A DNA stretch of 44,743 nucleotides, filler included, from Jimgerdemannia flammicorona (taxonomy: Eukaryota): the NCBI GenBank assembly GCA_003990765.1. It is 2 parts of 2 records of this genome, joined end to end, with 100 filler letters (N's around TTAATTAATTAA, not from the genome) between each part and the next. Parts side by side here need not be neighbours in the genome. Positions count along the whole stretch, not along the records: positions 1 to 22,326 come from RBNJ01001300.1; positions 22,427 to 44,743 come from RBNJ01001301.1. One strand, 5' to 3'. Positions 5,647 to 35,952 of this stretch are shown here, one piece after another. The notes beneath the pieces were generated by a model that was not told where the DNA came from, made no database searches, and worked only from the letters and a program-made list of their open reading frames with translations. Both the position numbers and the translations under genes were made by a program. Numbering within the stretch: position 1 is the first letter of the stretch; each line of letters opens with the position of its first letter.

Positions 5647-6060
5647 GTCAGTACTGCCAAAGCCTTTCTGATCTCGCTTAGTTGAAGACAGCTTGATGAC
5701 TTCTTTGATGACTGGTAGGGTAGCTCACTCCAGAATGAGCTGTGAAATTCTGTCTCCTTCATTGACAGTATATGGTTGATTCTTGTGATTGACTAGCAGG
5801 ACTTGCATTTCACCCCAGAAGTCAGGGTCAATGACTCCAGCACCAACATCTAATGAGTGCTTGAAACTAAGGCCAGATCTTGGTGCAATTCCTGCATAAT
5901 GTTCCTCGGGGATTTCAACTGAAAGGCCAGTTGGAATGAGCCTTCTTTCATGTGCTGGAATAGTGACTTGTTGTACTGCTTGAAGGTCCAAACCAATGGC
6001 TCCTTCTGACTGTGCTTGAGAGATCTGGGCCTTGGGATTGACTCACATGAAATTGAGTAC
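5647..6060 (-). pseudogene. dut: trimeric-family dUTPase, in frame between the Gag zinc knuckle and protease, element 1
   Basis: All five motifs: AIGLDL, PRSG, GVIDPDFWG, GDRISQL, RDQKGFGST. The gag, dUTPase, PR and RT ORFs share one reading frame (start offsets are multiples of 3). Confidence 0.95.
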
Positions 6061-6099
6061 AACTTCTTGTTCAACTGGTTGACCTTGGGTGTCTTTGGA

Positions 6100-7000
6100 C
6101 AGAACCAGGATCCTCTTTGGTTCAGCAGTTTTCTTGGGACATTTGGTTGCAATGTGACCAGACTGATAGCAAAAGAAGCAGGCTCCAGCCTTCTTGAGGC
6201 ACTCCTTTTCCTCAGGTGTAAGCTTGCCTTTCTTGCTCTTATCAATAGTGTCTAGGTCTATGGGGGCAGGTCCAACAGTTCTGACTTTGGGTTCCTCCCT
6301 TCTGTGGTTATTGTTGTTGTTGAAAGGCAGTCTCTTCTGTTCAAAGTAGTGACCATAGGTGATGACATCAAACCTATCAGCAATTTTCATTACCATATCT
6401 AGGTCCTTGGGTTCTTCTAGTTCAACACGAACTCAGGTTTGACCTTTCAGACCTTGGATGTACTTGTTGACCTTCTTGTCTTCAGTGACATATAGTAATT
6501 CTAACAGGATTAACAGTAATTGTATATTGTATGCTTGCATAGACTTAAGTTGTTTGACATTTACTAGACAGTCTTGTGCAGTCTTGATGCTGTTGACTGG
6601 TTTGAATTGGCCTTGAATAGCATCAGAGAATTCGCCCCAGGTCTTGATTTGGCCAGAGAATCTGGTATTCTGGACATGATTTCACCACCAGATTGCAGCA
6701 TTCTCTTGGAGGAGTGTGGTGGCAAATTGGACTAGTGTTGTTTCTTCCAAATTGGTCAGTTCTCCATATTGCTCCAATTGGAAAAGCCAGGCATCGGTAG
6801 ACAGTTCTCCTCTTTGACCATCAAAGGTGTCAGACTTCTGAGACTTGATAGTAACTGCTATCAGATGTATTGATATCAGTGGAGGTGTGGAGGTATGAGT
6901 GGAGGCCTTGTTTTCCTTTCTTTCTATACATTCTTGAAGTTGAGCAATCTGAGCTAGTACAGTCTGCAAAAGACTCTCAATGGCCCCATTCAACTGAGTA
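6100..7000 (-). pseudogene. Gag with CCHC knuckle, element 1
   Basis: DTFDG...AWLFQLEQY...LLQENAAIWW capsid-like region; CFFCYQSGHIATKC at 6139-6180. Confidence 0.9.
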
Positions 7001-7152
7001 GGGTTTTTCTGTTCCTCTTCTTCTTGCTGATTGTACTGATTGTATGAGGCATTGCCTGGACTGTAGGTACTATATGAAGGGTTCCACCCATTGTCCTCTA
7101 TAGTGTTGTAACTGATATCTTGAGAGGTGTCTTGATAAGGCTAGGTGTAACT

Positions 7153-7167
7153 TCACTACTACTACCA
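7153..7167 (-). promoter_or_regulatory. primer-binding site of element 1, probably decayed initiator-Met type
   Basis: Minus strand tggtagtagtagtga, 2 nt after the 5' LTR. Element 4 has tagtagcagcagt, giving a joint consensus TGGTAGCAGC. The tRNA identity is inferred. Confidence 0.65.
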
Positions 7168-7169
7168 AG

Positions 7170-7572
7170 TGTAACAGTTCTAGTTTCTAAATAAGGAAGC
7201 AACTAAGTCTGGTGGTCCAAAGTAGCTCGAAGAGATACTAAGAATTCAAGTATTCTCAAAGGATTTCTGAGAGAAAATATTCTGAGACTTTATTCATAAG
7301 AACAAAGGGGATATTTATACAAGATCTGAAAGAAGAATCCAGAAGGATCTGAGAAATCAAAGGAAAATGCCAAGAGGAAAGTTCTCAGTAAAGATGATAA
7401 ATGATGACAAATAAAGTTCTACAAGTTTCCAGAACATTCAGTGACTAACTAAATAAGTACTAGTTAATGCTCAGTGCCAAGAAAGGATTTCTAAGCATTC
7501 AGAAAGTACCAGAAGGTCATAGAATATTGAAGAAAGACAAAGAAAAGGAATAAACTATGCTAAAATATTACA
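7170..7572 (-). repeat. 5' LTR of element 1
   Basis: Direct repeat of 1557-1958; about 24 substitutions and one 1-nt indel by eye. Confidence 0.95.
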
Positions 7573-7577
7573 TAGAG

Positions 7578-9378
7578 TCCTTCTCTCTAGGCAGAGGAGT
7601 GCTGTAAGGAGATCCATTGTCACCAATTCTCTATGCCCTCTTATTGGAGCTCTTGTTGGATAAAATATAGTATAGAGTTGGGGGTTTGGATATTTTAGGA
7701 GTGAACTAGAAGGTTGGGACCTTTACTGATGATATGGTGATCAGGCTGAGCTCTATAGAGGATGTGGTAGTACTGAAGAGTATAGTAGAATAGTATGAGA
7801 GGTGTTTGGGTACTAGGCTTAATTGGTATAAGTGCAAGACTCTGGCCCTAAGTGGAGAAATAGTTGGCAGTGATGTGATCAGAATGGTGGTTCCAGCTAG
7901 TGAAGCAGTTCACTACTTAGAGATTTATTTTTCAGTATATAGTTCTCTACTGTCTTATAGCTGGTGAAAGCAGCAGCTACTAGTATGGGAGGATGTTCTC
8001 TTAGAGTAGAGAGACTATTATATCTCTCTAGTAGAGAGAGTGATAGTACTGAATGTATACTGGTTACCAAAGCTATAATATATAGGATATTTAGACTTTC
8101 TAACATGAGTGGTCAAGAGACTATTAAAGATAGCAGATTATAGATCTGAGTAGGGTGGTAGAGCCAGATAAGCTGGGAGATATTAACATTGCCAGTTAAC
8201 AGAGATGGGCTGGACCTGGTGGACTTCACCAAGTATCTATACTATATGAAAGTATGGTGGCTGAAGTGAGTAAGCAAATTATAGAGTTAAGAGTGGGTGT
8301 CTCTTATGTAGAGGATATGGGAAGCTCAGTGCTCTCTCTGAGATATAACTGGTGATCTACTCTCTCTGGTGGCTCTCAAAGGGAGTAGAAAGATGCACTA
8401 TAGAGGATTCTGGTAGAGAGTAGTAGATAGTGCCCACAATATTAGTCTCTGGTGGAGAGGTGATAAGGGGGAGAAGGAATGGAGACTACAGATATAGAGA
8501 TAGAACTGTCTACTGTTAGGAGGTATACTGGTAGAAGATTTTCAGCTTGAAGATGATATAGAATATCTATGGAAGATGGGAGGGATTTGTGACTGGAAGT
8601 ATGGCAGGGGGTTGGGATTAGTGAAAAGTAGGACTGGAATAGTATCTGGTCTTAGTATAAGCAGGTGGCTAGATGGCTCCCTCTTCAGATTCTGGGTGAT
8701 ATGGTGGTAGATTCTGAGGTGTAATATAATACTGAACTACCAGTTGGGACACTTGGTAGAAGGGGATGCTTTGGAGTGTGAGGAGTATCTGGATATTGAG
8801 CAGATGGGGGGCATAGTGCAGACCCCTAAACATTGGCTTAGAGAGTGTGAGGTTCTGGGTAATTTCTGGTAAGTCATCAAGAACCAGCTGGAGTTACAAC
8901 CTGTGGAGGAAGAGGAGGGTGGGAGGTGGAGTGATCTCTAGTATAGATTGGTGGGAGGAGTTGGAGATGAGTGGTCGACTTTGGGGTAGGCTCTAGCTAT
9001 TTGGGTTGGGCTTGCTAGATATTGGCTCTATATATTTGAGGATGGTCAATAATTAGTAGTTGGAGTAAGAGTTGTACAATGAGAGTGATTATTGCTAGAC
9101 ATTCTGAATGGATGATGGTAGGAGTAGAGACCTAGAGGGAGAATCTATAGAAGACTTGTGGAATATATTTGTAAGAAGAGTAGGGGGAAGGTTGGGGTCA
9201 CTGTGGAGTTGGTAACTCTCTAGAGAGGTGGGGAGAGAGAGAGAGAGAGAGGTCTATGTGAAATTGGATAAAGGGTATATTGATACTTTTATATTAATAT
9301 AACATAAATTGGATAGTAATTAGTAATAAAAGTAAAAGTCCAAGTAGTTATAAAAAAAAAAAAAAAAAAAAAAAAATC

Positions 9379-9414
<36 letters not shown>
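7578..9414 (+). mobile_element. LINE-A right part: RT C-half, C-terminal Cys/His motif, 3' UTR, poly(A)
   Basis: GDPLSPILY, GTFTDD (decayed FADD), CEE(Y)...HWLREC, (GA)9 at 9233-9250, AATAAA, interrupted poly(A) 9352-9414. Confidence 0.9.
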
Positions 9415-9416
<2 letters not shown>

Positions 9417-10311
9417 AACAAAGTACTACTACAGTTATCAATATCACCAGTACTATACAATAAGTTATAGGAAGACAATAGTGTACTACTAAACTGCCAA
9501 TCATAGAAGAATTCTTTAATAGCATCCAGAGTATAGTCCAGATACACTTATTATGAATCTCACATTTCAAGATCTACTAAAATCAGACTAAGTTTCAAAA
9601 ATACTTCAAGTTAGAATAACTACTAAACTCACAACCAGAGATAGAAAAAGAAGACTAGATCAGAGAGTACTAGCTCTCTCATACTCAGATCACAATTGTC
9701 AAACAAGTTAATAAGTTATTCAAAGATAATGAGCCAGCCCTAGCCTATCTCTAAGAAGTAGTCTTAGGAGACTTTGGATATATCAAGAGATACTATTAGA
9801 AGAATATAATGATGCAGATTGTATAGTATAAAGAGATACAAATTATGGAAGCTTGGGAGTTTGAGTGAATAGGATATTTCAGAGATGAATCACCTATTCA
9901 GAAAGAAGTTGTAATGGTTGATCTGAATTAGTAATATAAATTAAAGAAATAGATATTTGATTATAGTATCTAAATCTAATTCCCAAATATAGTATAGTCT
10001 TACAAATAGCAGTCATATTTAACAAATGTGGAAACATTAACAAATGTTAAAGTATTTGTAGATATTAAAGTATTTAACAGATATTAAAGATTAATACTTA
10101 TAAAAAATGACTTATAGAAAATATAATTATAACTTAACTACTTTATAGCTAGTAAACTTATATAAATATCTCCAGTATCTAGAGTGAATAAACCTCAGAT
10201 CAAAATAGTTCAAAGTAAAGAGAAAGCAAGAGAACTCTGTAAAGTCAAAGAAGATTAAGTAAGATACAGAAATCTGATATACTTACACAGTTATACACCC
10301 ACTACATTACA
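9413..10311 (+). mobile_element. 3' end of an element-2-related Ty3/gypsy: extra ORF relic, PPT and LTR (9910-10311)
   Basis: Codon-colinear with ORF 15631-16023. The LTR shares gtgaataaacctcagatc, aagatacagaaatctgat and the ctacattaca end with the element 2 LTR. Confidence 0.85.
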
Positions 10312-15046
<4,735 letters not shown>

Positions 15047-15524
15047 TGTAATGTAGCAGATACTTACTCTTGAAAGTACATCAGATTTCTGTATCTTGAA
15101 AACTTGACTGTTCTGACTCTCGCAGAGTCCTCTTGAAGTTGCAGGGGAGGGTGGGTGAGTTTGAAGTGTATCTGCCTGCAGGCTTACTAGTTTCTTTGCC
15201 ATCTCTTTGCTTTTGAACTATTTCGATCTGAGGTTTATTCACTCGAAGATACTGGGTTATTTATATAAGTTTGCTAGCTATGAGAGGGTGGCTAAGTAAT
15301 AAATGAGTCATTTGGACTTTGTCGAAACATTTGGACAATGTCTAAATGCTATACTAAATCAAGGTATCTGATTTGGATAATGTCTAAAATTTAGACAATG
15401 TCTAAGGATTTAGACAATGTCGAAATCGAGGACTGCTAACTATAATGCTATACTACTTTGGGAATGGGTGCGATCAAGTGTCTATTCCCTATTTCCTTCT
15501 TCCAAATTTGGCTGTACTATCACA
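15047..15524 (-). repeat. 3' LTR of element 2 (478 bp)
   Basis: tgtaatg...atcaca, repeat of 21291-21726 with about 42 extra bp in the tandem array. Confidence 0.93.
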
Positions 15525-15526
15525 AC

Positions 15527-16023
15527 TTCCTCCTGAATGGATGGTCTCATCTCTGAGGCATCTATTCAAACTCCCAGGCTTCAATGGTCTATATGGTCTT
15601 GTACTGTGCAATTTGCTGCATGACTGTTTCCTAATGATGTCTTCTTACTTTCTCGAAGTCAGTAGGGGTTACTCCTCTCAGGTAGTCTATCGCTGCTTCA
15701 TCTTCTTGGAATAACTTGTGGATCCTTTTGGCAATAGTGATCTGTGAGTGGGAGAGTTGACACTCAGCAATCCAGTCCTCCTTGGTCTTTGCTGGATCCT
15801 GATTGAGCACCTGTCCAAGCTTGAAGTACTCTTGGAATTCTGCATGATACTGATAGGCTCTAAAGTGCGAGATCTGAGAGAGATGAGTCTGCATAATACT
15901 CTGAATATCCTCATAGTATAGCTCTATGGTCAGAGGCTCGGTGGTGTGCCATTGTCTTTCGATGGCTCTTTGGGCAGCACTAGTGATCTTGAGTGCCATC
16001 GTGGTACTTTTGTTACTGGCCAT
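15527..16023 (-). pseudogene. extra ORF of unknown function between integrase and PPT (~165 codons, few in-frame stops)
   Basis: Own ATG, 130 open codons, and a homologous copy at 9413-9900. Confidence 0.8.
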
Positions 16024-16029
16024 GATATT

Positions 16030-17030
16030 TCTTAAGTCGGTTTCAGTGAATGGTGGTGGGGATTATTGTGCCTGAGGGTTTTCATAGCCAAAAGGTGGTT
16101 CCTTTTATATCTTGCACAAGGTAAGGTCCTTCCCACTTGAGCTCCAGTTTTCGTGACCATGAAGCTTCTACCATGTTCCGATACACCAGGACCTTATCTC
16201 CTATCTTGATAATCTCCAAGAGCTTGTGGGTCTTTTCTGCATTCCTCTATTATAGTGTCTGCGCCTTGGTTATGTAATCCTCAGCCTTCTTCCTGATTTG
16301 GTTTAGTCTCCATATTTCCATGTCCACATGTTTCCATACAGTGTCTCCATTGGATGATAGGGTTCCTTGAGAACATTCTTCTCTGAACAGCATTTCTCAA
16401 GGGGTAAAGTGGGTGCTTTGTGATCAGATATCCCAGAGAGCAGATAATGCTATTGGCAGATAGTGATCCAGTTCTTGTAGTTATCACAGATCTTGGCAAT
16501 AATATTCTTGAGAGTTTTATTGGTTCTTTCTACTTGTCCATTTCCTTGGGGGTGATAGGCTGTGGTCCGAATGTGCTGGATCTTGTACTTCTTGTAGAGA
16601 ACCTCAAAGAGCTGGTTCATGAATTCTGTTCCTCTGTCTGTAGTTACTTGTGTTGGGGTCTTGAACCGGCAGATGATTTCCTTATGGAAGAAATTGGCAA
16701 TTGACTGTACATTGGCTTCCTTGAGAGGTCCTGCTTCTATCCACTTTGTAAAAAGGTCTACAATGACAATGATGTATCGGTTACCAGTCAGGGTCAAGGG
16801 TAGAGGGCCAATTACATCCATTGCTATATAGGCAAATGGTACTGGTTCTATGTGTGCTGATCCTGGGGCTTGATTCCATTGGTCTTGTTTCTGTTTCTGG
16901 CATTTGTCGCATGTTTTGACGAATTGTCTGATATCTTCCTCCATCCCTGGCCACCATATTGTTCTTCTTGCCTTGTCATGTGTATTCATTCCTCCTAGAT
17001 GGCCAAGTTCATGTACTGATTTCATCGCTT
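16030..17030 (-). pseudogene. integrase without chromodomain, element 2
   Basis: VHELGHLGG...CDKC, MDVIGPLP, TTDRGTEF, YHPQGNGQVERTN, KWEGPY tail. Confidence 0.93.
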
Positions 17031-17239
17031 GCTCCTTCTTGTGTTCTGGTATGACTAGTAGTTTTCCTTTCTTCAGGTTTCTCCATCAGTTTCGAATTGT
17101 TTCCATGTCCTGTTGATAATCATTTGTGTCTATTCTTCCAGATGTTGGGGCATCTTTCGCTGTCCCAGGTATGTGATGATTCTGTAGTAGAGCTCCTTAT
17201 TCATGATTGATTTGTTGGTTGGAGGTAGTTCAAGGTGTC

Positions 17240-18422
17240 CATGAGAGAGCATCTGCATTGGAATTTGTTCTTCCAGGGCAGTGCATGATGGTTACATCAT
17301 AGGCTTATATGTAACTTCATTATCCATCTGGCATAGATTCCCTTGGGTTGTCCGGTTGTCAGTAGCCAGATGAGAGCTGAGTGGTCCATCTGGATGGTGA
17401 AGTGTCTTCCGGCCAGATAGTAGTGGAACTTTTCCACAGCCCAGATGACTGCAAGGCATTCCAACTTGTAGGACTCATATTCTTTTTCAGCCCCTTGGGT
17501 TCCATGGCTAAGATATGCAATGACATACTCTTTTTTGTCTTCTTTTTGAGCCAGGACTGCTCCTAGTCCCTGTGTACTTGCATCCATCTGAAGGATAAAT
17601 TCTTGGGTCCAATTGGGTCATCTGAGGATGGGTGCCTGAGTTAGTCTGACCTTGAGTTCGTCAAATGCTTTTTGTTATCTGCCAGTCTACTGGAACTTGG
17701 TATCCTTCTTGTTGAGTTTTTAGATTAGACCTGCAATGTTGGAGAATGCGATAGTAGGAGGCAAGTCCCATGAAGGCTTGGGCTTCTGTGACAGTAGTGG
17801 GCCTTGGGTATACTGCTACTGCTTGTATTTTGAGGGGGTCCGTGTGTGTTCCATCTCGGTTGATGATATGGCCAAGATAGAAGATCTTGATTTCCGCAAA
17901 CTTGCACTTCTTGGGTTTGATATAAAGGCTATGTTGTCTTAGTTTCTCCATTATCTGCTGTATATGCTGCAGATGTTCCTCAGGTGTCTTGCTGTAGATG
18001 ATTACATCATTGACATAGACCATCATCCATCTTCCCATGTCATAGTGGAAGATTTTGTTCATCATTTGCTGGAAGCTTGCTGGTGCATTGCACATTCCAA
18101 ATGGCATTCGTAGGTAGATGTAGGTTCTGTCTGGGGTGATGAAGGCTGACTTTTCACTTGCCATTTCTGTGAGTCCGATTTGGTGGAATCCTGAGTATAA
18201 GTCCAAGGTGCTGTAGTACTGTACTTCATCTCCCAGTATTATAAGGATGTCACTGATGAGCGGCAGTGGTTGGCGATCCTTCTTGGTGACTGCATTGAGC
18301 TTTCTGTAGTCGACACAGAGCCTCGGGGCAAATTCTCCAGGTTTGCTTCCTTTTTTTGGGGCTAGTACAACTGGTGAAGACCAGGGGCTACTGGCTTCTT
18401 TGATGATGCTGGCTTCTTCCAT
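17240..18422 (-). pseudogene. reverse transcriptase and RNase H, element 2
   Basis: SPWSSPVVL, CVDYRKLN, MPFGMCNAPASFQ, YVNDV (decayed YVDD), DASTQGLGAVL, LECLAVIWA. Confidence 0.93.
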
Positions 18423-18707
18423 CTGCTTGATTTCTTCTCTGAGCCATTCTCAGTAGGCTGGCGGGACAGGTCTTGCCTTCTGGTAAATTGGTTCAGTGTC
18501 TCTGGTATCTACCTCATGATAGTAGTGTGGGGTCTTTTCCTTGATATCCTTGAAATCCATAGTAAGGATATCCTCAAATTTGTGGAGTATTTTCTTGAGT
18601 TCCTCCTTAAGTGGGAATTCATCTCCAATGGTGTAACTGTGCTTGCTCATGTTTTCCTCCTTCTTATGCTCGAGTTCGGTGATCTTGGTGCTGGCAAATA
18701 CTCCTCT

Positions 18708-19124
18708 TCCTGTGGATCTGAATTCTTTCTTTTCTCTTTTCGTTTCCTCCAGATTCTTGACTTCTATGATCCTTGGCTGTATGATTGGAAAGATCAACAT
18801 CTGTGCCAATTGGTCCTTCTTCTTGACTGGGAATAGAATTGTAGGATTGTGGTTCCTAGCAATGAGTAGAATTTCTCCAGTATAGTCTGAATCAATGACT
18901 CCTCCTTCGATTGTAATTTCGCTTCTAGCCAGGCTGCTTCTTGTCTTGAGAATCTCGACATGATCCTTTGGGATGGTCATCTCTAGTCCAGTTGTGAGTA
19001 GGGTGGTTGTCTGGGGTTCCAGTACAGTTTCTTCTACTGTAGCAATGTCCATTCCAGCTGCATTTTCTGACTTATATTCTGGCAAGACTGCATCAGGGTG
19101 GATTTTTCGAATCTTGACCTTGAT
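18708..19124 (-). pseudogene. dut: dUTPase between protease and RT, element 2
   Basis: AAGMDI, RSSLA, GVIDSDYTGE, KDQLAQ, REKKEFRSTG (motif 5 with G>A decay). Confidence 0.93.
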
Positions 19125-19459
19125 TTCTTCTTCATCATCACTGTCCTCCAGGAGGGCTGGTGGTTCATTGTCTTCCTCCTTCTCTTCCTCCCTGATCTGT
19201 TTTTCAAGAGCTTTCTGCCTCCTTTCCTGGTAGATCTTCTTGGTTCTGATGGTGCACTGGTAGCAATCGTTGACATGCTCCATACAGTACATCTTGATTC
19301 CATGAGGACAGACTCCTTGTGGGGTATAGCCTTCTGCAATCTTTTTGCACCATTCTTCTTCACTCATCCATCCGACTTTCTTCTTCTTTGGGGTAGTCAC
19401 CATATAAGCTTCCTCTTGCTTGCTCTCTTCTTCCTCCATATCGGGCAGGACTCCTTTGT

Positions 19460-19830
19460 TGACGTTGATGGGAATTTGTATCTTCTGTCCCCAGTAGGTG
19501 ATTTGCATCTTCTGGGCATTGAGATCGATTACCGCCTTGGCTTTGTGAAGCCATTGATTGCCGATGAGGATGTCATAGTTAGTGGCATTGGTTATGATTA
19601 TATCTACTGGGATTGTTGCTCCTCCGATCTTGATGGGAACATCTCGAATCTTTCCCAGAGGTGTGGCTCTTGTGCCATTGGCTGTGACGAATACTAGCTT
19701 AGTTGCTTCTTCCACATCCCAACCTAGGCAGTCTGCTGCCTTCTTACTGAGGAGACATCCTCCTGCTCCTGTGTCAATGATGGCTTCAAAGACTCGATCC
19801 TCAATTTGGCATGTTGCATAAGTAGAGGTT
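19460..19830 (-). pseudogene. aspartic protease, element 2
   Basis: IIDTGA and DILIGNQWL. Confidence 0.92.
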
Positions 19831-19899
19831 TTGCAATTGTCCTCAATTTCTTCTCCTGAGTCCTCTTGAACATTATTGGCCTTGGTTATCTTCCATCCT

Positions 19900-21180
19900 T
19901 GTTCCTTGGTTGTTTCAGCAAGTCCAAACCTCATTTGCTGTCTGAATGTTGGGATTTCTGCAAGCTGACCAAAGGTTGCATTGACCTTTTATTGGCTGAG
20001 ATCCTTGAAGATATCATACTTGAAGGTCTTGGTCTTGCAAAGCTTCATTTCTTTTTCTCCTTCACTGGCTGGAGTGGTTCCTCAGATGATATCTTGAACT
20101 GCTTACTCCAGCTCAATATCCTGGTTCATCTCTTCAGCTTGGCTTTCTGTGTCAGTTTCCATCTGCTTTTCTACTGGGTTCTTCTTGGGTCTTCCTGGTG
20201 GTCTCTTGTAGGGTTCTTTGCGAACATCCTTCTTAGTGGTCTGAGCAGGATAGGCCTCCCATTCTTCTTCATCAGATTCTCCAATTTCTTCAAAGGTGAT
20301 TGTATTGGCCTGCTCCTTGTTTCATGTGGCATTGCTTGGTTGAGCCTTGCATTTGGTTTCACTCATACATTCATAGGAGTAGTGGCCTTCTTCTCTGCAG
20401 CTGTAGCAGGTATCTTTCTTCTTGTCTGAGGTGGTGGCAAACTTCTGAACAGGGCAGTGATCTCTTCCTCAGATTTCCTTTACCACATCTTCCAGGTGGG
20501 CAGTCATTTCAGCAAACCTTTTGGTGAGTTCCTCCATAGGGTCACTGTTCTTTTGCTGCTCTGTAGCTTTTGGCTGAGGTGTGTTTTGATTGATCATTGT
20601 GGTGGGGATCACACTGGTTGCCTTGGGTGCCTCGATTCTGACTCCTGTAACTCTTTCCATTGTATGGTCTTGTGGGTGTCTGGCTATCCAGTATCGCTGA
20701 GCATAGATGACCCTCTGTGGCAGATCCAGAATCACTGGTGATGAGCAGATGGCCATGACTATTTCTGGATGGACTTCTTTCATGAAGGTTGCTTCAGCTA
20801 CTTGATCTCGGGTAGCAGCCACATAATCTGCAAGGATTATCTGATATCGAATTCTGGTATAGAATGTGTTTGGATCCTCGCTCATTCCTTGGCATATTGT
20901 GTTGAGCTGATCCTTCAGGGCTTGCTTAATCTCATCTGTATATGTATTTCAGAGCCAGGTCTTCTGTGCTGTCAGTACAGCATCGGCATCATTTCCTGCA
21001 TGGGTTGCGGCTGTGAATACTGCTCTGGCAGGACCTCGTAGGCTGAAGGGCATGAGGGCTACTTGCTGTGCTGCTGTCAGGGTTCTTACAGCAGCATACT
21101 GCTCGAAATCATCAATGAAGGTGATGATTGATTCATCTGAGGTATATCCGTGGAATACTGGTGGTCTCATATCCATCTTG
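19900..21180 (-). pseudogene. Gag with CCHC knuckle, element 2
   Basis: PPVFHG...LRGPA capsid-like region; CYSCREEGHYSYEC near 20365-20410. Confidence 0.85.
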
Positions 21181-21290
21181 TCTGGGTATTGGGGCTCAGT
21201 TTGTATGGTTGTTCAGGTAATGGTGGTTGTTCATTGTTCAGCTTGAAAGTGAGGGATTCATCTTGAATAACCAGCCAATGGGTACCAAGT

Positions 21291-21726
21291 TGTAATGTAG
21301 CAGATGCTTACTCTTGAAAGTACATCAGATTTCTGTATCTTGAAAACTTGACTGTTCTGACTCTCGCAGAGTCTCTTGAAGTTGCAGGGGAGGGTGGGTA
21401 AGTTCGAAGTGTATCTGCCCACAGGCTTACTAGTTCTTTTGCTATCTCTTTGCTTTTGAACTATTTCGATCTGAGGTTTATTCACTCAAAGATACTGGGT
21501 TATTTATACAAGTTTGCTAGCTATGAGAGGGTGGCTAAGTAATATATGAGTCATTTGGACTTTGTTGAAACATTTGGACAATGTCGAAACATTTAGACAA
21601 TGTCTAAGGATTTAGACAATGTCGAAATTAAGGACTGCTAACTATAATACTATACTACTTTGGGAATGGGTGCGATCAAGTGTCTATTCTCTATTTCCTT
21701 CTTCCGAATTTGGCTGTACCATCACA
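21291..21726 (-). repeat. 5' LTR of element 2 (436 bp)
   Basis: Direct repeat of 15047-15524, followed on the minus strand by the PBS at 21271-21287. Confidence 0.93.
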
Positions 21727-21730
21727 TTAG

Positions 21731-22326: not shown

Positions 22327-22426
22327 NNNNNNNNNNNNNNNNNNNNNNNNNNNNNNNNNNNNNNNNNNNNTTAATTAATTAANNNNNNNNNNNNNNNNNN
22401 NNNNNNNNNNNNNNNNNNNNNNNNNN
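22327..22426. other. artificial contig-joining spacer
   Basis: Exactly N44 + TTAATTAATTAA (stops in all six frames) + N44. Confidence 0.97.
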
Positions 22427-25400
22427 CCCCCACCCCCCCTCTCCACCTCTTCTCAATAAAAGACTACTTTGTTAAATACCATCTCCACCCACCCACTACT
22501 CTGGCCACAGATCTCTCCTATCAGATGGTGACATTGCCCACTTTGGGGACCACAACCAACCCACCACCCAGTCAGTAGATCTCTCAACAACTCCTCCCAC
22601 CTCAAAAACTTCTCCTATATTCTTATCTATTACCCTTCCTCAAAAACAAAGAGCCAATATCCAGCCAACCTAACCCACACTGCTATAACCCACCCTATAG
22701 TGAGCAACTCATTACCAACACCCTCCACTAGTCTAGATTTCAAATCCTCTCAGTGATCTCTCTCTCTATTCAGCCTTCTTTCTATACCCAGCTAGTCCCC
22801 TATAGCTATCCAAAAGTCCCCCAAAACCTCACACTCTCTCAGCCAATGTTCTGGCATCTGCACAAATCCCCCAGCTTGTTCTACATTATAACACTCCTTA
22901 CAATCCAGTTGGCCACCATCCACCAGATACCCAGCACAGAAATTTAGCATAATATTCCTCCACAATATTCACCACTATACTACTCAGAACTTGGGAGAAA
23001 GCCACCTCTGCACCTTCACACTTTAGGACCAGATTTCTGCCCAGTCCCACTCCTCACCAATCCTTACTGTCTGCCAACTACTCAGCCAAAGATTCTGGCC
23101 AAGTCTCTGCTGACACTCCACTCTATTACCAATATCAAACTCAGCAAGTGGAACCCCCCCTAGAAGCAGTCAGTCTCATTACCACATAGCAGGGCCCCTC
23201 ACCTCCTCTCCCTTATTGCCTCACCAGCACAGGCCTATCTGGTGTGCTCCATTTACCACCCCCCACCAGAAGCCCTTATATCTTAGCCATTGGCTTCCAT
23301 TCAGATCCACCAGAGAGAGCAAATCTCCTGAGGACCCCTGAGGGGAGAATCTCATCTCTCACACCTTTTGCATCAGCAGTACCCAACCTTCTCCCTGTAG
23401 TTTAATAGCCCTTTTCAACCACCAAGCTTGTAGACAATATAACTGCTTAGGGAAATCTACAAGGCCTAGGCCTCTCCTAGTTACTGACTCTACAAGGGTA
23501 TCCCAATGGATCTGGGACCTTCTTCTTGTCCAAATCCAATCTCTAGCCAGTTTCATTAGCCTCTTCACCACTCAGGCCAGAAAGTCTAAGTGATATACCA
23601 CATACCATAGCTTGGGGAACCAGTAAATATTCAGGATCAACACCCACCCTACCAGGGAGATGTGATAACCCCTCTAACTTTGTAGAGCCTCCCCCCAAAT
23701 AGCCACCCTCCTCTCCCACCAAACTCATGGTAAGACCAATCTATATATGGAAAGAAAGATACTGAGATACCACACCACCTCTCCTGTGGGGACAATTATT
23801 CCAATGACATCCCCTTCCACTAGCCCATTCCCCAGCACCATTGTCTCACACTTATGCTAGTTGAGTTTTGCCTCAGAGCATTCCACTGTTTCCTTAAGTG
23901 CTCCAATATCTGCCACTGATCTAAGTCCAACTACTATATCATCTATAAAGACCCCCACCTTCTATACCACACCATATATAGAGAGCCTGACTATCTTCTG
24001 ATGGATCCTATCCATCAAAGGTTCTAGTAAAAGAGTGTAGAGGATAGAAGACAGTGGGTCTCCTTAAGGAACTCCTCTCCCCAAGGGAAAAGCCAAACCC
24101 CTGTACCCATTATACATCAGTACTGCCCTACTACCCTCTAACAAATTCAACATAAAAGTCTGAAACTATAGTAGAACACCAATTCTGCCCAGTATCTCAC
24201 TCAGCCATATCTGCTGAACACAGTTATAGGCCTTCTTCTGATCCAAAAAGACCAGTCTACTATTTAGTCTACAAGTCCAGACCTCTTTGATAATATCATA
24301 CACTCAGACAGTCCCATCTCTGATAAGTCTATCTCCTACAAAGCCCTGCTGCTCCTCACCCAGAATCTGTTGAGCAACCTTCTATAGCCTCACAACAATT
24401 ACCTTGGTCACCAACTTCCAATCCATATCCAAAAGTATAATTGGTCTCCAGTTCTTCCAGTCCTCTACCTGCTCTTGTCTTTGTACAATAAGGCCACCAA
24501 CTCTAAGTCCTGCTCTCCAACCCACTCACCATTCAGAAGAACATAGTCACAGAGGGTAGTCATCTCTTCTAACACTCCAGGGACCTTCGCCATCTTCTTC
24601 CAGAAGTTCCAAAATAACCCATCCTCCTCTGGCACTATCCCAAGCTTAGTTGCCACAAGGACTCCCTGAATCTCCTCCTCTCGGATTGGTAAGATCAAGT
24701 CACTCAATCTCTCTACCTGTGGTGGCTCTCACTCCTCCAGTGTATCTCTAATTGTCTCCTCATCAGCACCCCCTTCTTCCTCACTCCACAGATCCCACTA
24801 TCTCTTCTTCAAAACCCCCAAGACTAGTTACATACTATGCACTATATTCCTCTTGACATCCAAGACTCCTTCCCACCTATGCCACACTCTCCTAGCTTTG
24901 AGAAGCCTAGACAAGTACCTAGTAGGCTGCTCCCCCTCCTCAAGCCCCTGCCACTGCAGCCTGATAGCCATTCCTCACATATGAGCCTCTTTCTCCTCTC
25001 TCAATATCTGTTACAGTTCCACTACCTTCAATTTTGCCTGCTCTAACCTCCAATCCACCATCTTATCAGAAGTAAGCAAATCAGCCCATTCTATCTGCAA
25101 TCTCATCAGCCTATTTGAAGTATACCATATATGCTTTCTCTTTCTTCTCCCAGCCTCTCTACCAGCTCCTCTCCAATAGATCCTTGCAGTCTCTTTTAAC
25201 CTCATCCAACAGACACCTACAGATAAACCCTTATGCCTCTAGATAGGAACCTTCTCCTGAATGTTCTCTACCTATAAGTCCCACAATCCCTTCTCAGCCA
25301 GCAGGGAGGAGTTAAGGCACCAATGTCTGGGTCTATCTTCACTCCCTCCAAACTGCCCCTGCTCTAATAGTTCTCAGTAATCCGACTACAGGCACCACTC

Positions 25401-28143
25401 TACCTCTAAAGTCTTCCAAACATCAATACCCCAACAGTCTGCCATCAGAATCCAGTCAATTCTCATACCTAAGCCATTCACCCAATGTATGTAGACTCTG
25501 GTGTCACCCCACCAAGATCTGCCCCCATTCCCTAAGGAGCTAAGATTCTCCACCTCCTCCCACACATCCAGACCACCACTTCTCTCACCTGCATTCCTTC
25601 CTCCATCAGTTCTATCTAGTCATAGATCCCAAACCATATTAAAATCACTGCCAAGAACATTGATGCCTTTCTCCAAGAGAATACCCTCCTCCATCAGCTC
25701 CTTAATCCATACAATCCTCTCACTCCTAACTGCAGGGCAGTAGCAGGAGCCAACCTTCACTGATTCCCACCCTGGCTAATGCCATTCTCCCCAGACCAAG
25801 TGATCACCCCAGCTCCTGATTCTCCCCAAGTCTCCTCTATCCTTCTTCACCAAAATCACCACTTTGCCAAACCAAGCAGTAGCCCCACCCCATTCCCTAG
25901 TCTACTCCACCCAATCATCCTCATCCTCACACTGTACATCCTGTAGTAAAAAGAGATCAACCTCCAATCCTTTGAGCTAAGTGAAAATGTTCTTATGCTG
26001 CCCAGATTCCCATAACCCATTCACATTCAGAGAGAAAATATTAGTTGTACTATTTATAAGAAATAATGTTATTTATTGAACTCATCTTCTACAAATCCAC
26101 ATTCAACTCCTCCTGTGCCAAGTCCAATTTGTGCTCTGCAGCTAGTCCCTTCTCTTCAGCTTCCTGTGCTGCCAACCCTCCCAGAAGTTCAGCCATCACC
26201 CCATCCTCTTTCTCCTCAAAGTCCTCATAATACTCCAGACAGGCCTCCTGCCAGAGCTGCAAACCATGATGCTCTGCCCAACAATAGGCAGCCTGCTCAC
26301 CAGCAACAACTGCCAGCTCCACCTCTCTCACCTTATCAACCTCATACCCCTCCTCCTTTATGAAAATTACAAGAATCTCCACCTTCAGTACCTCCACCAC
26401 CCCATCTCCATACAGAATCCATACCCAATGCTCCTCAGGCATCCCACGCAGGTCCACTTCTCCCAACTCTTCTGCCATAAGATTATCCATCACCACAGCA
26501 GGTTCCCTACCTCCTTCCCTCCAGGAGTCCCTGGCCACCCTGCATCCAGTATCATGGTATCTGCTCCTATACTGGTAACCTTATCCCACTTCTCCTCAGG
26601 GACATCCACCAGCTCATCCTTGCCAACCACCACCACCTGGCCCCCTTTTGCCACATTGGATACCCCAAAGTGTACTCTCTGGGCCCCCTGCATCAGTATA
26701 TCCTCTGCTGCCCCTCTCTTTCCTACTGGGCCCCTCCTGATAAGAGGTGGGGGGGTGCCATCTAACTCCTGCTCCCAGACCTCAAATGTACCATCTGTAT
26801 AGGGGTCCTTACTTAGTACCTTCCCAGCCCCTTCCTCATTTGCCACTACCTCCCCTCCTCCTTTACTAGCCCAGATGCTGGCTTCAATGCCTCCAGCCTC
26901 CTCAGCCCTATCTACCTTCTTCTTTGCCCCTCCTTTCATACTTGCTAAGAGCTTCCTCTACCTCTTGCACCCCTGGGCCTGCTCTCACTGCCTCTTATCA
27001 GTATGGATATGCTTCCCCTCCATAATCTCCAAGTGTGTTGACTCTACATATTTCTTCCAGGCTCTTGCCCTCTGCTCAACTGCTCCACTCATCTCTTCCA
27101 GTGCCTCTAGTAGATCCTCCTCCTCCTTCTTACTCCCTTTCACCCTTGATACTCAACAGCTGAAAACCCCCCAAAGCATTACTGCTGGCCAGTGACTTAT
27201 CTTCTCAGTGGTCTCTTTCACTGCTAGTTGAATCCTTACATCAACATCCTTAGTCCTGATGGTGGTCCCCTCCCAAATCTGAAAACCAATATCAACTATC
27301 TCACCATACTCAGCCATCACCTCCTCAATCCTCCTCCTTGTCTCAACTGCCATCACCATCAGTACTCTCTTCACCAGCAGCTGGACCACTCTAGGGTCCC
27401 ACCTCAGACAACATACCATAGAGACCACTACCTCTCCAACTACTACTCCAGCCTTCAGAGTCTCATCCAGCATACCTGCCTCCTCAAAACCCACTTCAAT
27501 CTCCTCCAGCCCCTTCAGAAACTTCACCAAGGCAGCCCCAGGACCATCCTTGTCATCACCACCAAGCCCTGGAAGCACAAGGTTGCCGCATACTCTGAAA
27601 TCAACTTCTTGAGTAATGGTGCCACCACCAGCCCTGTCACACCATCAGCCAGGTCCCCCTTCTGCATTGGGAACCCCTGCTCTACTCCACCATCAGCTGT
27701 CACATCTCTCTTTTTTTCCTGATTCCCCATCACACTTTCATCAGTAGTCTCACTCCCAGTCACAGTGTCTCCAGTACCTATGCTCACATCTCCCACCAGT
27801 ACCTCCCCCCCTTCCTAGGCTCACCTTGTCCTTCCTTTCAGCAGCACTAGCCCTAGATTCAACTGGCCACCCACTCTCCTTCACCTTATCTGCAAAGTTT
27901 GGGAGGCCAGGCCTTCCCCTATTACCACCAGACACTGGTCCACCTCCAGAGCCCTCACCACCCTTCAACCCTCCAAAGGCCCCCATCCCCAGACCATAAC
28001 CCCTCCCTACATTCTGCCAGCCAAAAGCCCCAGGTCCACCCGACCCAGCATACCTGTCAGAACTCTTGCTTGATGATATTTTTATAATACCTTTTCTTCA
28101 AGTTATGTCAAAAATCATTGCTTGAAGTTGGTATAATGTGAAT
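22427..28143 (-). mobile_element. LINE-D, near full-length L1/Tx1-like element (ORF1 ~27990-26089, ORF2 from ~26057), 3' end cut by the spacer
   Basis: ORF1 YGEIVDIGFQ RRM-like segment; ORF2 IFSLNVNGL, LLQDV, GSDFN, WRPIILLD, FLDQKKAY. Inverted homolog of 39047-44743. Confidence 0.93.
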
Positions 28144-28499
28144 TATATGTCTGAGTCAATATCTTTGCCTAGATTACAAACTGTTTTTTTAATCTCAAGT
28201 TGATTGACATAGTTATGAATCTTATTAATCATCCCAAGCCATTTTATATATATATTTTTTATATTTTTTTTTATTGAAAGTTCTTGATAAGACATCAGGC
28301 TAGATAATATAATTCAGTTATAATTATATAAAGAAATAAGTATATACTAAATAAGTATATGCTGATAAACATAAATCTATAAACTTGAAAATATACTCAC
28401 AAATGTATAAATAATAGTAACTATATAATGGTTATATATTTATCTTTTTGAAATATATTTATAAACCAAGATTTCTATTTAAAGAATATAAAATAGAGC

Positions 28500-30059: not shown

Positions 30060-32026
30060 TATAAAGCTTTTTTTACTTATATTGCAACCTAAAGTGCAAA
30101 TCTATCTTGGAATTGACTTGATATATCTATAAGATATATAATATACTTATATGATATCAGAATGACAAGTCTATTCTTGAATTTCTAGTTCATCAAGATT
30201 TTAGCAACTTTAATATTATACTACTATTATTTATAAATTCATTTATAGTTTATAAGTTAATCTTAAATTTTATACATATTTTAAGTTTGAGCAATATATA
30301 TAAATAAACTTGATAATCATACTAAGTATATATATATAAATCAAGATAATATCAGTAGTGATGGCCTATCTTCAATTCAAGAACAGGAAAGCCTATTATT
30401 TAGCAAAAATGAAAATTTAATTTAAAAGAAAAGATAATCATTCAGGGAGAATGATAATTCAATTCAAGATCAGAGAAGCTTATCTACTATATTGGAGTTT
30501 GGTAAGAATCATATTATCCATAAACTTGGATAGATACCTATAACTGATATGAACAATCCTTTATATCCTTAGAAGAATGATAAATAAATTTGGCTCATAA
30601 ATCTATTGTTTTAAAGTAGAAATATATTCTGAAAGATTACAGATGAACTTCTTAATATATTTACAGATATAAGAATTTTAATAGCAAATGGGTTCCTCCA
30701 GTTTATAAACTCAAGAGAGATGATAAAACTTTAGATATAGTAGCCAAAAACAGAGTAATATATAATTAAACAGTTAATATTCCTATTAAATCATAAATAT
30801 TCGGTAATTCTCTTTTTCAAATTAGTTCTTCAATTATAAAGTTTTTAACATCACTCATATATATGTCTAAAACTTGAATTAATGAATATATACTATTCTA
30901 TTGAGATCTACTTACTGTTCTGCATAAGCTGATATCAAATACTTTATTCAAGAATAATATGAAATTTAAAGTAAAGAAATACTATATAGTAAATAGTATG
31001 TATATAAAAGTACTCTAAGATATATTGGAGTAATTTTTAATAGCAAACATAGGTAAAATAATAATTAATTTTAAGTTTACAGATGATCAGTCAGTATACT
31101 CACTATTTGTAGACTATAATTCTTTTTTCAAACTATAGGAGAAACTCTTACTTAGTATAATAATAATTCTGATATTACTTAGGATTGACCAAATATATTG
31201 TAATCTGCTTAGATGTATCAAAATATATCTACTATATATTTCTATTAACAATCTCTCTAAATATATTTAGCAAACATACTCATAAAATATATTCCCAGTA
31301 ATTGCATATTTTCTAATTATTGAAGAAACTCTCAAGGAGACTGAAAAAGACTTCTTCCATAAAGTAAAAGTAGTTCTATATTATAGATATATATTATAGG
31401 TACTTTGCAGACTATCTGTAGTAGAAAAAAGTTAATATTTATAATTATAAAATTATTTTGATAAAATTTTATTATTTGATAGCTGATTACAAACATATTT
31501 TGTAATAGTATTATTATGTATAAATCAGATAACAAACTTTATAATTACTATCCAGTAGTTATGTTCTTTATGGTTGATTATCCAGAGATATGTTTGATCT
31601 ATCTGATCTATATGAATCAAGCCTGCCCAAAATATATGGTCTCTTACTTGTAATTTTTATATCTTGATAAGATATATCCTCTATAAATAGTTTCTGAAAT
31701 ATAGCGAGCAGTTGTAAATATACAGATTTACAATTCAAAAAGCAAATATAAAATAGCTAAGAAGAGCCTTTAGGAGTGTAGATTATAGATATTAACTTTA
31801 TATATTAATTTTGCTTATTTTCCAATAAATATTTTTTTCTAACAATTATATCATCTATCAACCAAACTCTAGAATACATTATGGGAACTATCTCTTATAA
31901 ATATTTATTTAATAATTATGTCTGATATACTTCATCAAATAAAAAAAGATATCTGAGAACATCTGGTCAATCTAACTCTTAATCTTATTAAGAGTTTGTT
32001 TAATATACATAGCAAACCTGCTTATA
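30060..32026 (+). pseudogene. Plavaka-type (CMC/CACTA-related) transposase, 5' part, heavily decayed
   Basis: Relic C2H2 finger ~30070-30140, NPLYP*, IDQ...LYISINNLSK...IAYF (~31160-31320), MVDYPEICL...CPK (~31570-31635), DILHQIKKD (~31924). Order matches my recollection of Plavaka motifs. Confidence 0.8.
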
Positions 32027-33527
32027 TGTAAGTGCACAACCTCCAAGCCACCAAAATTGCATGGCATCCTCAGAACTAATTTGAAAACCATATGGGAGAC
32101 TACAAAACAAGTTACTGAAGAGATCATCTGGTTACATGAAATATGCTAGCAAGCATAAGAACCCACTGCTAAGATACAAGAATACTAGAAGAAGTACTAC
32201 AACCATAAGACTGACTCTGAACCACTATAACTAGTTTGGTGTACTGTACTATTACAAAAGGAAACTGAAAGTACCGAACTCAAATTGAGACAAGAAGAAC
32301 CCTATCTCATCTACCAAAAGGTTCACGAACTACACTTATTAACTCAAGACCAAGATACACTATGACTATACAAGACCTCATTACTTAGCAGAAGCAAAAT
32401 GCATTTGAACAACTCTGTTCACTCTATCTGTATCACTTCTGTTGGAGAGTGATGGATACTTCATCTGAACTCAAGAAAGCCGATATCATTGAAACCAATC
32501 TCAAGTCATCCATATGACAGATATTACTACTAGGAATTGCCTCAGATTACAGAAAATATCATTTCCAAGAGATTTGAACCCCCAGCTATGACATTGGGAG
32601 CCCTTGCCCTAGATGAGAATGGCCAGTCCTCACAAATGTGTCAGCAGACCAAAAAAAAAGAGAACCAAGACCTATTATCCTTATATAACTACTGCCACCA
32701 AGGACAGCCTTAATCTTGCAAGAGATAGAAGTGATGATACCTTGAAACTGATGATGTCAGAAGTCAAAAAACTGCTCAGACTTTGCCAGCAATGATATCA
32801 TCAATAGTGATATCATCAAAGACTAACCAGATAGCACCTAAACCTATAAATAGCTTAGCAGTCATAGTATAGTTAGATTAGCCTTGTACAATATGACTGT
32901 GAACTGACTCAGTAGTCAGACAATCTCTTGATATATCAGATCACTCTTGTACTATATAACTGTATTCCAACTCAGCAAGGTACTTAGTGCTACATCCATA
33001 TTTAGCATAGTCCAGATAGCCCCTCACTAGTATAAATATCCCCTCTCTCAGACCTCAGAATCTCAGACTTAAAGACCTGAATAATCTGAACACAACTCCT
33101 GAACACTTCCCCACAATATTCCTTCACACAACTACTCCTAGTATAGCAATATCATGAATAGTAAATAAACCTATTTAATAACCCACAAACCACTCTTAAG
33201 TAAATCCGCTCTCCATTAGGTCCCACTCCTAACCCTGTTACAAAATTTCCTAATTGGGTATTGTCTGCAGCAATACACCAATTCTACTAAGCTGACCTTA
33301 GTTTCTTGAACCTCCTGAAATACAGAAACTCCTGAACATCCAGAACTAGTCTGAAAGAGGACTTTGGTTGAGACATCAATCTGATCTTGAAATCAATAAG
33401 TATAGAGGACATACTCCATATGAAATTGATCTTGACCATAAGAAAACAGTCTTCCAGAATATCCAGAACTTCTAGAAAATCCTTCCAGAACTACATAATG
33501 GTTACTCTAAAAAGCAACCCTCTTACA
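32027..33527 (+). repeat. 5' LTR of element 4 (1501 bp)
   Basis: tgtaag...cttaca; TATAAATA near 33031 and AATAAA near 33164. Confidence 0.95.
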
Positions 33528-33599
33528 ACTTAGTAGCAGCAGTTTACAATTCAATTCTACTTCAAGATGCTTTCTCACTTAGCTACAAACCCTTTTGAG

Positions 33600-35500
33600 A
33601 ATTCCTACAAGTTGGTGTAAAGCCCAACCTCTGAACTGGAATTTATCCTGAACTATCTGACAATCTGGAGAGAATTGAACCTGATGTACAAGGACAATTT
33701 GACCTCCACACCTGCAACAAGTGGGACAAACTTCATTCAAAGAAAGAAGTATTCCAATTAAATCAGCAAATAGATGAAAACCTATTCACCGAACTCCTTG
33801 CACTACACCCAGTAAGTCAAGATGAAGAAGGTCTTATAGAAGCCTTCTTTACTATTCTCAACAAGAGTTTTGTCAGCTCCACAAATCTAAGTGACCTAGG
33901 ACAACCAGCAGCAGTCTTTCTAGCCTTAGTCTCTCACAAAGTCCAAGCCTCTGTAGCCAAGTAGCTCAACTCTACTGACTTTTACCATACCAGGACCAAG
34001 ATCACATTATACTACTAATTCCAGAATAGCAAGGCCCGCTATATTCTTAAAAAAGAAGCAAGAGAAACCCTTCATCAACTATCTGACCCCAAACTAGAAG
34101 CAGGCCCAGCTACAGCCCTACCTGAACCTAAAACTAATACCAAACCAGAACTTGACTTTAAATTAAGTCCATCTGAAATCAGATATACAACTGATTCTGT
34201 CTACTTTGATGCTGAGCAAACCCAACTCCACGGGGACCAAACTGAAGAGGAGGAGGAGTATCTCAGTGAATTCAATCCCAGATACACCACCAAAGGAGAC
34301 GTGCCTCCATCAGGAGAGAATACACCTACACAGCAACAGACAGCTATCTATCAAGCCCTTACTCCAGACCCACAACTACTACTCCAGCAACTTACACAGA
34401 CCCAAAGAACCCCATCACACTCTACACTAGTACCTTAAGTAGTACCAGTAACACCACTACCAGTAGTCCAACTGCCTCTAGTAAATAACATGGTGAACTA
34501 ACAGATTCTAGACCTCACAGCCCAGGTAGCAATAATGGCAGCAACCATTACTGCCTTAGCTGAACAGACCCGATCTACCAAAAATCTGAGCTTATCTACC
34601 TTCAATGGTACTGCACAAGAAGTCCAAAGCTTCATTAGTGTAGTTGACACTAACTTTGAAGCCAATCAATGGACCAATGCTTGAGTTACTGACTGCCTTC
34701 TGATAAACAATCAAGACCACACTCTGGAACAACTCTTTGCTACTACCACAGCCTATGTCTGCCAAGTTGTTACATTCTTCTGAGGACCTGCCAAAGAATA
34801 GTGATGAACCCTTTCTGAAAAACCCCTCACATGGGATACCCAACCTGCAGTAGTTGCCCAAAATACAGCAAATAATGCCCCAGGATATGGAGCCCATCCT
34901 GCAGCCCCTGGACTCAAACAATTCATGATTGCTCAATACTGCAGTGAAACTATGATTGCCAAATCTCAAGTAAAACTCCACAACCTCAAATTTGATGTAT
35001 ATGGCAAAGAAGAATTTGAAACCTTCTGTACAAAACTCGAGTCACTCCTGAACACTGTTGGTCTAGAATATATTGCCAATGATGAAGTACAAAATGGTAC
35101 AAGAGCAGACCATTTATTCGATGCACTGCCTGAATGGCTTACTAGAAAAATCTGAGAACAAGGCCATTCAGTTGGTTGTGATCACCAACAATGGTGCCTG
35201 GCAAGAATCAAGACTATGGTCAAGTGAATCCTAACAGCTGGACCAATTCTGCCCTGAAGACAATTCAACAACAAGGAAAAAAACTTGGACCAAGAAAGAA
35301 GAACCCAAGCATGAAGCATTCTGAGCTCCCTCAACATCCACTTCATGGATGCCCAGAAATCATGAACCCACTTAGCCAAGTACCTTCAAGAAACTCACTG
35401 AAGGAGAAAGGAATGAACTTTGAAGAAGCAGAGCATACTTCTATTGCCAAAAGACAGGACACATGGCCAGTGCCTGCCCTAATTGAAAACCCATAAGCAA
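33600..35500 (+). pseudogene. Gag with long N-terminal extension and CCHC knuckle, element 4
   Basis: One frame with only transition-type stops; TFNGTAQEVQSFI, F*GPAKE**, (C)FYCQKTGHMASAC at ~35436-35480. Confidence 0.82.
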
Positions 35501-35544
35501 CTGTTACTACTCTGCACCACCTCAATAACCTGACTACCAGAACA

Positions 35545-35952
35545 CTAGACTTTGTCAAGTTAAGACAAACTGCTAAGGCCCCAATCAAAGGAAGTCAAAA
35601 AGCAGCTGGATATGACCTGTATGCAGCCAAAGAAGCTATAGTTTCCAACTGAAAAGTCAAGCAAGTCTATACAGGAATCAGCATCCAAATTCCTGAAGGA
35701 CATGTTGGAAGAATATGCTGTCGCAGCAGTCTAGCATTGAAAGGACTCTCAGTAGAAGAAGGAATCATTGACAAAAATTATACAGGTGAAATCATTGTTC
35801 TGATCCGAAACCATAGTTGGATACTCTCCAAGATCTCTATTGGTTTCTGTATTGCACAGATCCTATTTGAGAAAATCAAGTCAACTCTGACAGTCAAGGA
35901 AGTCCCTGAACTACTACCTACCATCTGAGGATCCAAAGGATTTGGCTCATCA
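35545..35952 (+). pseudogene. dut: dUTPase, element 4
   Basis: AAGYDL, RSSLA, GIIDKNYTGE, CIAQ, *GSKGFGSS. Confidence 0.93.

Follow-up and report, generated by a model that had tools for sequence, protein, structure and literature searches.

Previously, dUTPase domains were described at three positions in Ty3/Gypsy families of Postia placenta, for which independent acquisition was proposed (Novikova et al. 2010, PMC2864245; statements on published elements follow, here and below, the accessible parts of the papers cited). The positions in PosPlaTy3-3, -4 and -5 include the N terminus of Pol and the interval between protease (PR) and reverse transcriptase (RT), and the same paper cites dUTPase elements from Phanerochaete chrysosporium and Tuber melanosporum (Tmt1). 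In rotifers, three of four long terminal repeat (LTR) retrotransposon lineages have a dUTPase, located between PR and RT in the bdelloid elements Juno, Vesta and TelKA, and sharing of open reading frames (ORFs) across retroelements was reported (Rodriguez et al. 2017, PMC5408684). Non-primate lentiviruses carry the enzyme between RT and integrase (IN), where it matters in non-dividing cells and where its loss raises G>A mutation (PMC4531489). A preprint on Entomophthora found dUTPase enriched among domains related to transposable elements (10.1101/2023.09.13.557621), and the accessible main text of another preprint (10.64898/2026.05.21.726589) does not mention dUTPase. Here we describe a 44,743-nucleotide stretch of the Jimgerdemannia flammicorona genome (GCA_003990765.1; hereafter the window), in which four decayed Ty3/Gypsy elements from two old lineages all carry a dUTPase, either 5' or 3' of the protease. 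The general pattern was published in 2010; what is added here is its breadth within one genome and a companion domain, a small Cys/His module.

As in Postia, a single genome holds the dUTPase at varied positions. Three named families are involved there, whereas we sampled eight families from two deep lineages, four of them with the Cys/His module, which goes unmentioned in section 5 and the accessible passages of PMC2864245. As in the rotifers, most LTR lineages sampled here have a dUTPase, but the rotifer elements show a single dUTPase position and no chromodomain, in contrast to the two positions and the chromodomains of families F1, F4 and F6 in this genome; the extra zinc knuckle after the Juno dUTPase is likened to the module by position alone (PMC5408684). 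As in retroviruses, from which our functional model is taken, the domains are of the trimeric type and lie inside the polyprotein. Unlike retroviruses, the elements have Metaviridae-type RT and IN and no env match, and lentiviral dUTPases rank only in the middle of the matches to the domain of the element 4 family.

The dUTPase in two slots flanking the protease

The four elements and their relevant domains are as follows.

Element 1, 1557..7573 (-): chromovirus-type Ty3/Gypsy element of family F1, decayed, LTR pair 94% identical
Element 1 LTRs, 1557-1959 and 7170-7573: target-site duplication (TSD) GAGAG/TAGAG
Element 1 dUTPase, 5638..6042 (-): between nucleocapsid (NC) and PR, one internal stop; PF00692 (E=1.2e-28) and translation
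Element 1 aspartic protease, 5251..5613 (-): RVP_2 (E=1.7e-8), profile match
Element 3, ~10566..14811 (+): heavily mutated copy of family F1b, a sister of F1; the mapped span excludes the outer ends and LTRs
Element 3 dUTPase relic, 11070..11469 (+): 5' of PR, with a frameshift and stops; profile matches in two frames
Element 2, 15047..21728 (-): Ty3/Gypsy element of family F2 without a chromodomain match; Pfam protease, dUTPase, RT, RNase H and integrase
Element 2 LTRs, 15047-15526 and 21291-21728: 4-bp TSD TTAG; primer-binding site (PBS) different from the element 1/element 4 type
Element 2 aspartic protease, 19470..19829 (-): Pfam and profile match
Element 2 Cys/His module (C-x-H-x12-C-x2-C), 19224..19373 (-): between PR and dUTPase, 41-45% identical to modules of the element 4 family
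Element 2 dUTPase, 18699..19109 (-): between module and RT, in an open frame, with a changed motif V in the window copy; PF00692 (E=2e-23)
Element 4, 32027..38411 (+): chromovirus-type element of family F4 with an internal deletion, LTR pair 91% identical, 5-bp TSD TTATA; compared with copy L160
Element 4 NC zinc knuckle, 35436..35477 (+): CCHC motif in translation
Element 4 dUTPase, 35554..35964 (+): after NC, two stops; profile match
Element 4 Cys/His module, 35974..36123 (+): between dUTPase and PR, one stop; profile match
Element 4 aspartic protease, 36169..36531 (+): Pfam and profile match

Translation, Pfam and profile searches confirmed the layouts given in an earlier, sequence-only reading of the window, namely NC-dUT-PR in elements 1 and 3, PR-dUT-RT in element 2 and NC-dUT-module-PR in element 4. 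Element 1 reads gag-NC-dUT-PR-RT-RH-IN-chromo (RH, RNase H), with Pfam matches to capsid, zf-CCHC, dUTPase, protease, RT, integrase and chromo. The same domain order is found in element 3, which has decayed to 30% GC and is 67% identical in DNA to element 1, 76% to copy L095 in its 5' part and 69% to a copy of the element 1 family. Element 2 reads gag-NC-PR-module-dUT-RT-RH-IN, with PR-module-dUT in a single open frame of 512 amino acids (aa). In element 4, gag-NC-dUT-module-PR is followed by a deletion leading into a chromodomain stub, the PBS is of the element 1 type, and family copies such as L160 retain RT, IN and the chromodomain. Elements 1, 2 and 4 have the paired TG...CA LTRs with TSD, PBS and polypurine tract of Ty3/Gypsy LTR retrotransposons, and the PR-RT-RH-IN order with a Gypsy-type RT was seen by Pfam in elements 1 and 2 and in L160. 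Each of the four copies in the window has been damaged, be it by stops, by a frameshift or by altered motifs.

The NC-dUT-PR arrangement parallels that of betaretroviruses, in which NC-dUT stands ahead of PR. Within this genome, the dUTPase lies 5' of the protease in the chromovirus group and 3' of it in the F2/F5 group. However, lineage does not dictate the slot, because the outside proteins P0086 and P0122 combine a chromovirus-type protease with the PR-dUT order. The dUTPase has certainly moved between the two slots.

Other features of the window were also observed. The LTRs of element 4 (32027-33528 and 36911-38411) are unusually long at 1.5 kb, and the 5' LTR holds no open frame above 67 aa. 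After the element 2 integrase, a 143-aa open frame at 15634-16062 (-), also present in copy L142, is without a Pfam match. Two LINE-like copies in inverted orientation (22458-27749 and 39449-44740, 77% identical) retain a remnant of an RT; another such relic lies at 8007-9051. Two contigs are joined at 22327-22426 (N runs), which places element 4 on another contig than elements 1-3.

Selection on the dUTPase and its prevalence

By their sequence matches, the family dUTPases are assigned to the trimeric-type PF00692; matches in the PDB reach E=8.5e-27, and a structure model matches viral dUTPases. The selection on the dUTPase that the sequence-only reading had supposed is supported by three observations. 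Net between-family dN/dS of the dUTPase (Nei-Gojobori, no more than 10 copies from each family, with a downward bias from transitions) was 0.16 for F1-F1b, 0.20 for F2-F2c, F2c being a diverged subgroup of F2, and 0.21 for F2-F2b, next to 0.20, 0.17 and 0.09 for the protease and 0.11, 0.18 and 0.14 for RT in the same pairs. Transversions, the class unaffected by CpG decay, prefer third codon positions in the dUTPase (36/69 for F1-F1b, p=0.001; 39/66 for F2-F2b, p=4e-5). Motif counts show that the five dUTPase motifs, including the motif III aspartate, are retained at the family level. The F4-F6 and F5a-F5b pairs are near saturation for dN/dS, and within-family values were set aside because protein score had guided the choice of copies and dS is raised by CpG decay. 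For the module, the third-position evidence is weaker, with p=0.03-0.07 in the F2 pairs and none in F4-F6.

The host assembly comprises 231 Mb in 35,354 contigs, from which we sampled 58 stretches of 10 kb, taken from contigs of 11.5-66 kb at spaced contig numbers; two further targeted stretches were left uncounted. These yielded 35 dUTPase and 32 RT matches, one of the latter being a 26% match that is probably a LINE. As to the fraction of families with a dUTPase, 30 of the 31 Gypsy RT matches fall in the eight dUTPase families F1, F1b, F2, F2b, F4, F5a, F5b and F6, a prevalence that may be overstated since the queries were drawn from dUTPase families and short contigs went unsampled. Where a sampled copy shows both protease and RT, the dUTPase is present in 23/25 cases; the remaining two are truncated relics. 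Loose first counts over the whole genome gave 8,265 dUTPase candidates and 1,188 Copia RT candidates; no Copia RT was found in 72 long ORFs, out of 148 that the sampled stretches contain. Outside this genome, protein P0130 joins Copia-like Pfam domains to a C-terminal dUTPase, and one element match was seen in Acaulospora.

Lineages, dUTPase trees and the Cys/His module

Elements 1 and 4 belong to the chromovirus lineage and element 2 to another Gypsy lineage. In the RT tree, F1, F1b, F4, F6 and the outside protein P0122 form one clade (support 100/97), outside of which the element 2 RT falls, and the PR tree splits F1/F1b/F4/F6 from F2, F2b, F5a and F5b (100/99). Grouping F4 with F2 was rejected for both RT (p=0.00065) and protease (p=2.6e-5). 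RT identity between the chromoviruses and the other Gypsy lineages is 34-41%. The chromodomain PF00385 was matched in element 1 (E=2.9e-14), the F4 copy L160 (4.4e-16) and the F6 copy L104 (1.3e-5), and a three-frame Pfam search did not find it 3' of the element 2 integrase, nor was it matched in the F5b copy L150; both of these copies are decayed. The likeness of element 4 to element 1 in protease (score 188, against 69 for element 2), PBS, 5-bp TSD and chromodomain, pointed out in the sequence-only reading, is therefore well founded.

The same reading held that the dUTPase of element 4 resembles that of element 2 rather than element 1, which the alignments do not confirm. Between the window copies, the element 4 domain matches element 1 at 45/119 positions and element 2 at 42/121, and the mean identity of F4 is 38% with F1, 36% with F2 and 40% with F6, while host DUT reaches 41%. 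The motifs it quoted are present in the sequence, but they do not diagnose lineage. Cellular enzymes of Ambispora and Entamoeba also contain RSSL, and YTGE is present in P0122 as well as in P0123 and P0126, to which, among outside proteins, the F1 dUTPase is most closely related. The tryptophan of DPDFWGE is atypical of its own family, in which 30 sampled copies include DPDFRG 15 times, DPDFQG six times and DSDFRG three times. The loop between motifs II and III is one residue shorter in elements 4 and 2, and likewise in many unrelated dUTPases. Diagnosis of descent from RSS, YTGE and loop length was hence rejected as homoplastic. F4, F6 and the outside dUT-module proteins have one extra residue between motifs IV and V, a group that the tree neither recovers nor rejects (p=0.22), but the frog retroviral protein P0127 has it too.

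We built dUTPase trees from 63 rows with a mixture model and from 27 rows with LG+G4, using real copies (1-3 per family, X at stops) and excluding frameshifted copies such as element 3. In the 63-row tree, every family is a long branch off an unresolved backbone, and in the best 27-row tree F4 falls, with weak support, on the side of F1 (57/82). The F1 dUTPase groups with the outside dUT-PR-RT proteins P0123 and P0126 (98/91), although the P0123 RT as sister of F1 was rejected (p=0.027), a mismatch that speaks for exchange. Separate phylogenies resolve the RT/PR lineages but establish no significant conflict between them and the dUTPase. Because unrelated dUTPases also have the motifs in question and the tree backbone is unresolved, the dUTPase alone cannot demonstrate a swap.

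The Cys/His module offers better evidence of exchange. This domain of about 45 residues (C-x-H-x12-C-x2-C) stands before the dUTPase in F2 and F2b and after it in F4 and F6, and F1 and F1b are without it. The modules of F6 and F2 are 49% identical (their RTs 38%) and those of F4 and F2 35%, and an RT clade of the module carriers was rejected (p=0.00016). Searching 1.84 billion representatives with a profile of the module returned 18 matches, 15 of them credible and three in repeat-rich proteins; in 11 of the 15 the same protein contains a dUTPase, with the module after it in eight and before it in three. In P0135 and P0144, the module is present and the dUTPase is absent from the protein. Since so rare a domain occurs on both sides of a very deep split, its distribution is more simply explained by exchange, judging from these sequence comparisons, than by inheritance with mass loss. 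Of the repeated capture or swapping suggested in the sequence-only reading, movement between the two slots stands by the layouts, and exchange across lineages is plausible by way of the module, not the dUTPase.

The module probably binds zinc. Its structure model consists of a helix, a short hairpin and a helix (pLDDT 87). No Pfam family scored over the cut-off, fold searches gave nothing above noise (best Z 3.7) and no viral match at E<=0.001, and a search of the ESM Atlas gave no usable match. A description was not found in the titles, abstract openings and passages of the literature covered, to which subscription papers mostly did not belong. In F5a and F5b, the spacer between PR and dUTPase has a shorter CxH...CxxC motif, which scores no better than chance with the module profile (E ~1-10). 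This spacer, ~1.1-1.3 kb long, contains several Cys/His clusters in L105:6567-7700, L139:5650-6970 and other F5a/F5b copies, in which a further gap of ~0.6 kb separates dUTPase from RT.

Proposed account and its rivals

We propose that elements of two old Ty3/Gypsy lineages carry a trimeric-type dUTPase beside the protease that would be packaged as part of the polyprotein, freed in the particle and active in hydrolysing dUTP during reverse transcription. New cDNA would thereby escape both the incorporation of uracil and cleavage by host UNG, on the model of non-primate lentiviruses. By analogy with those viruses, such a dUTP-lowering function is likely. The dUTPase, often together with the module, may have passed between co-resident lineages long ago, most probably by template switching between co-packaged RNAs, and become fixed in either slot flanking the protease. 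At least two rearrangements would be needed, because PR-module-dUT and dUT-module-PR cannot arise from each other by one block transfer. Donor and direction cannot be read from these data. Taken as a whole, function and ancient exchange together, this is the account to which we lean, with some reserve.

Several results weigh against exchange and fit a single ancient capture before the lineages split, followed by vertical descent in which the domain was relocated and the module lost in F1 and F1b. In approximately unbiased tests of the dUTPase, neither the tree congruent with RT and PR (p=0.22) nor that of the sequence-only reading (p=0.41) was rejected. The eight element dUTPases lie on one side of the best tree against eight cellular ones (73/83), a single origin that was likewise not rejected, nor was a clade that unites the dUTPases of the four chromovirus families and excludes P0123 (p=0.086). 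Identity of the dUTPase declines smoothly with that of RT to a floor of 30-40%, as expected of vertical descent, and relocation within a lineage does occur, PR-dUT being found inside the chromovirus-type protease clade (P0086, P0122). In the module tree (49 columns), a split by position was not rejected (p=0.10), and among the 15 module matches P0001 is part of the profile and P0133 and P0136 are near F2 and F6. However, the split between chromoviruses and other Gypsy elements is very deep, an ancestral module should be widespread, yet only 15 true clusters were found, and most Gypsy elements are without dUTPase (PMC5408684). We regard purely vertical descent as having perhaps a minority chance. 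Separate captures per lineage from host DUT transcripts or viruses, with the shared motifs convergent, appear considerably less probable. Independent acquisition has been proposed for fungal elements (PMC2864245), F1 retains the cellular-type PRSG and loop length, and grouping F1 with host DUT was not rejected (p=0.10). The genome also holds a processed, intron-less DUT copy (L001/L091; L001:1495-2100 (-), G000:C6287) that is 98% identical to the host gene L092, followed by a poly(A)-like run and bearing a few motif II changes; therefore, DUT mRNA has been reverse-transcribed in this host. Against such captures, identity to host DUT is only 31-41% across the element dUTPases, no element dUTPase nests with the host enzyme in the trees, and the shared module would be left unexplained.

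The host DUT gene itself (L092, G000:C33350) is intact with three introns, and no simple lack accounts for a need of the elements for their own enzyme, which also weighs against the functional side of our account. The check on host status further identified two UNG loci, L182 (G000:C5369) and L183 (G000:C1630), with introns and catalytic motifs; a Pfam UDG search found only one exon, at L061, which we take from its motif to be TDG/MUG-like. With DUT intact and two UNG loci present, a host deficiency of either was rejected. It was also considered that the dUTPase counters the process behind the heavy C>T load of this genome. CpG is nearly absent, a comparison of element 3 with a family copy shows 335 C>T or G>A changes and 85 transitions in the opposite direction, and about half of the CpA sites of element 3 are mutated. 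However, the substrate of dUTPase is free nucleotides. Moreover, transitions make up 167 of the 179 mismatches between paired LTRs and fall mostly on CpG and CpA; because paired LTRs are identical at insertion, the load accrues in the chromosome after integration, and the caution of the sequence-only reading on this link was justified. The load has the form that methylation-linked decay, or decay resembling repeat-induced point mutation, would give. In raw counts unadjusted for composition, C>T exceeds G>A on the sense strand in element 3 (10566-12944 vs L095, 215/120), element 1 (103/44) and element 4 (62/32) and is balanced with it in element 2, in contrast to the G>A that follows lentiviral dUTPase loss (PMC4531489). 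A counter-measure to the C>T load is already largely refuted and very improbable.

The specific swap suggested in the sequence-only reading is unproven, and the four copies of the window are all decayed. A more far-reaching reading, which we put forward only tentatively, is that in this host group dUTPase and zinc-binding module form a mobile cassette that swept through unrelated Gypsy lineages in response to a dUTP-rich reverse-transcription compartment or cell state, the module tethering or regulating the enzyme within the particle. If this is true, retrotransposon design would have converged throughout the genome under pressure from the host. The module is also of use as a marker of part exchange between lineages, besides being a small unnamed domain. 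dUTPase has been called rare in retrotransposons, yet the families to which nearly all Gypsy copies sampled here belong retain it under selection. This genome is thus a natural test of why only some retroelements need a dUTPase of their own, a question left open in the accessible text of the fungal and retroviral papers.

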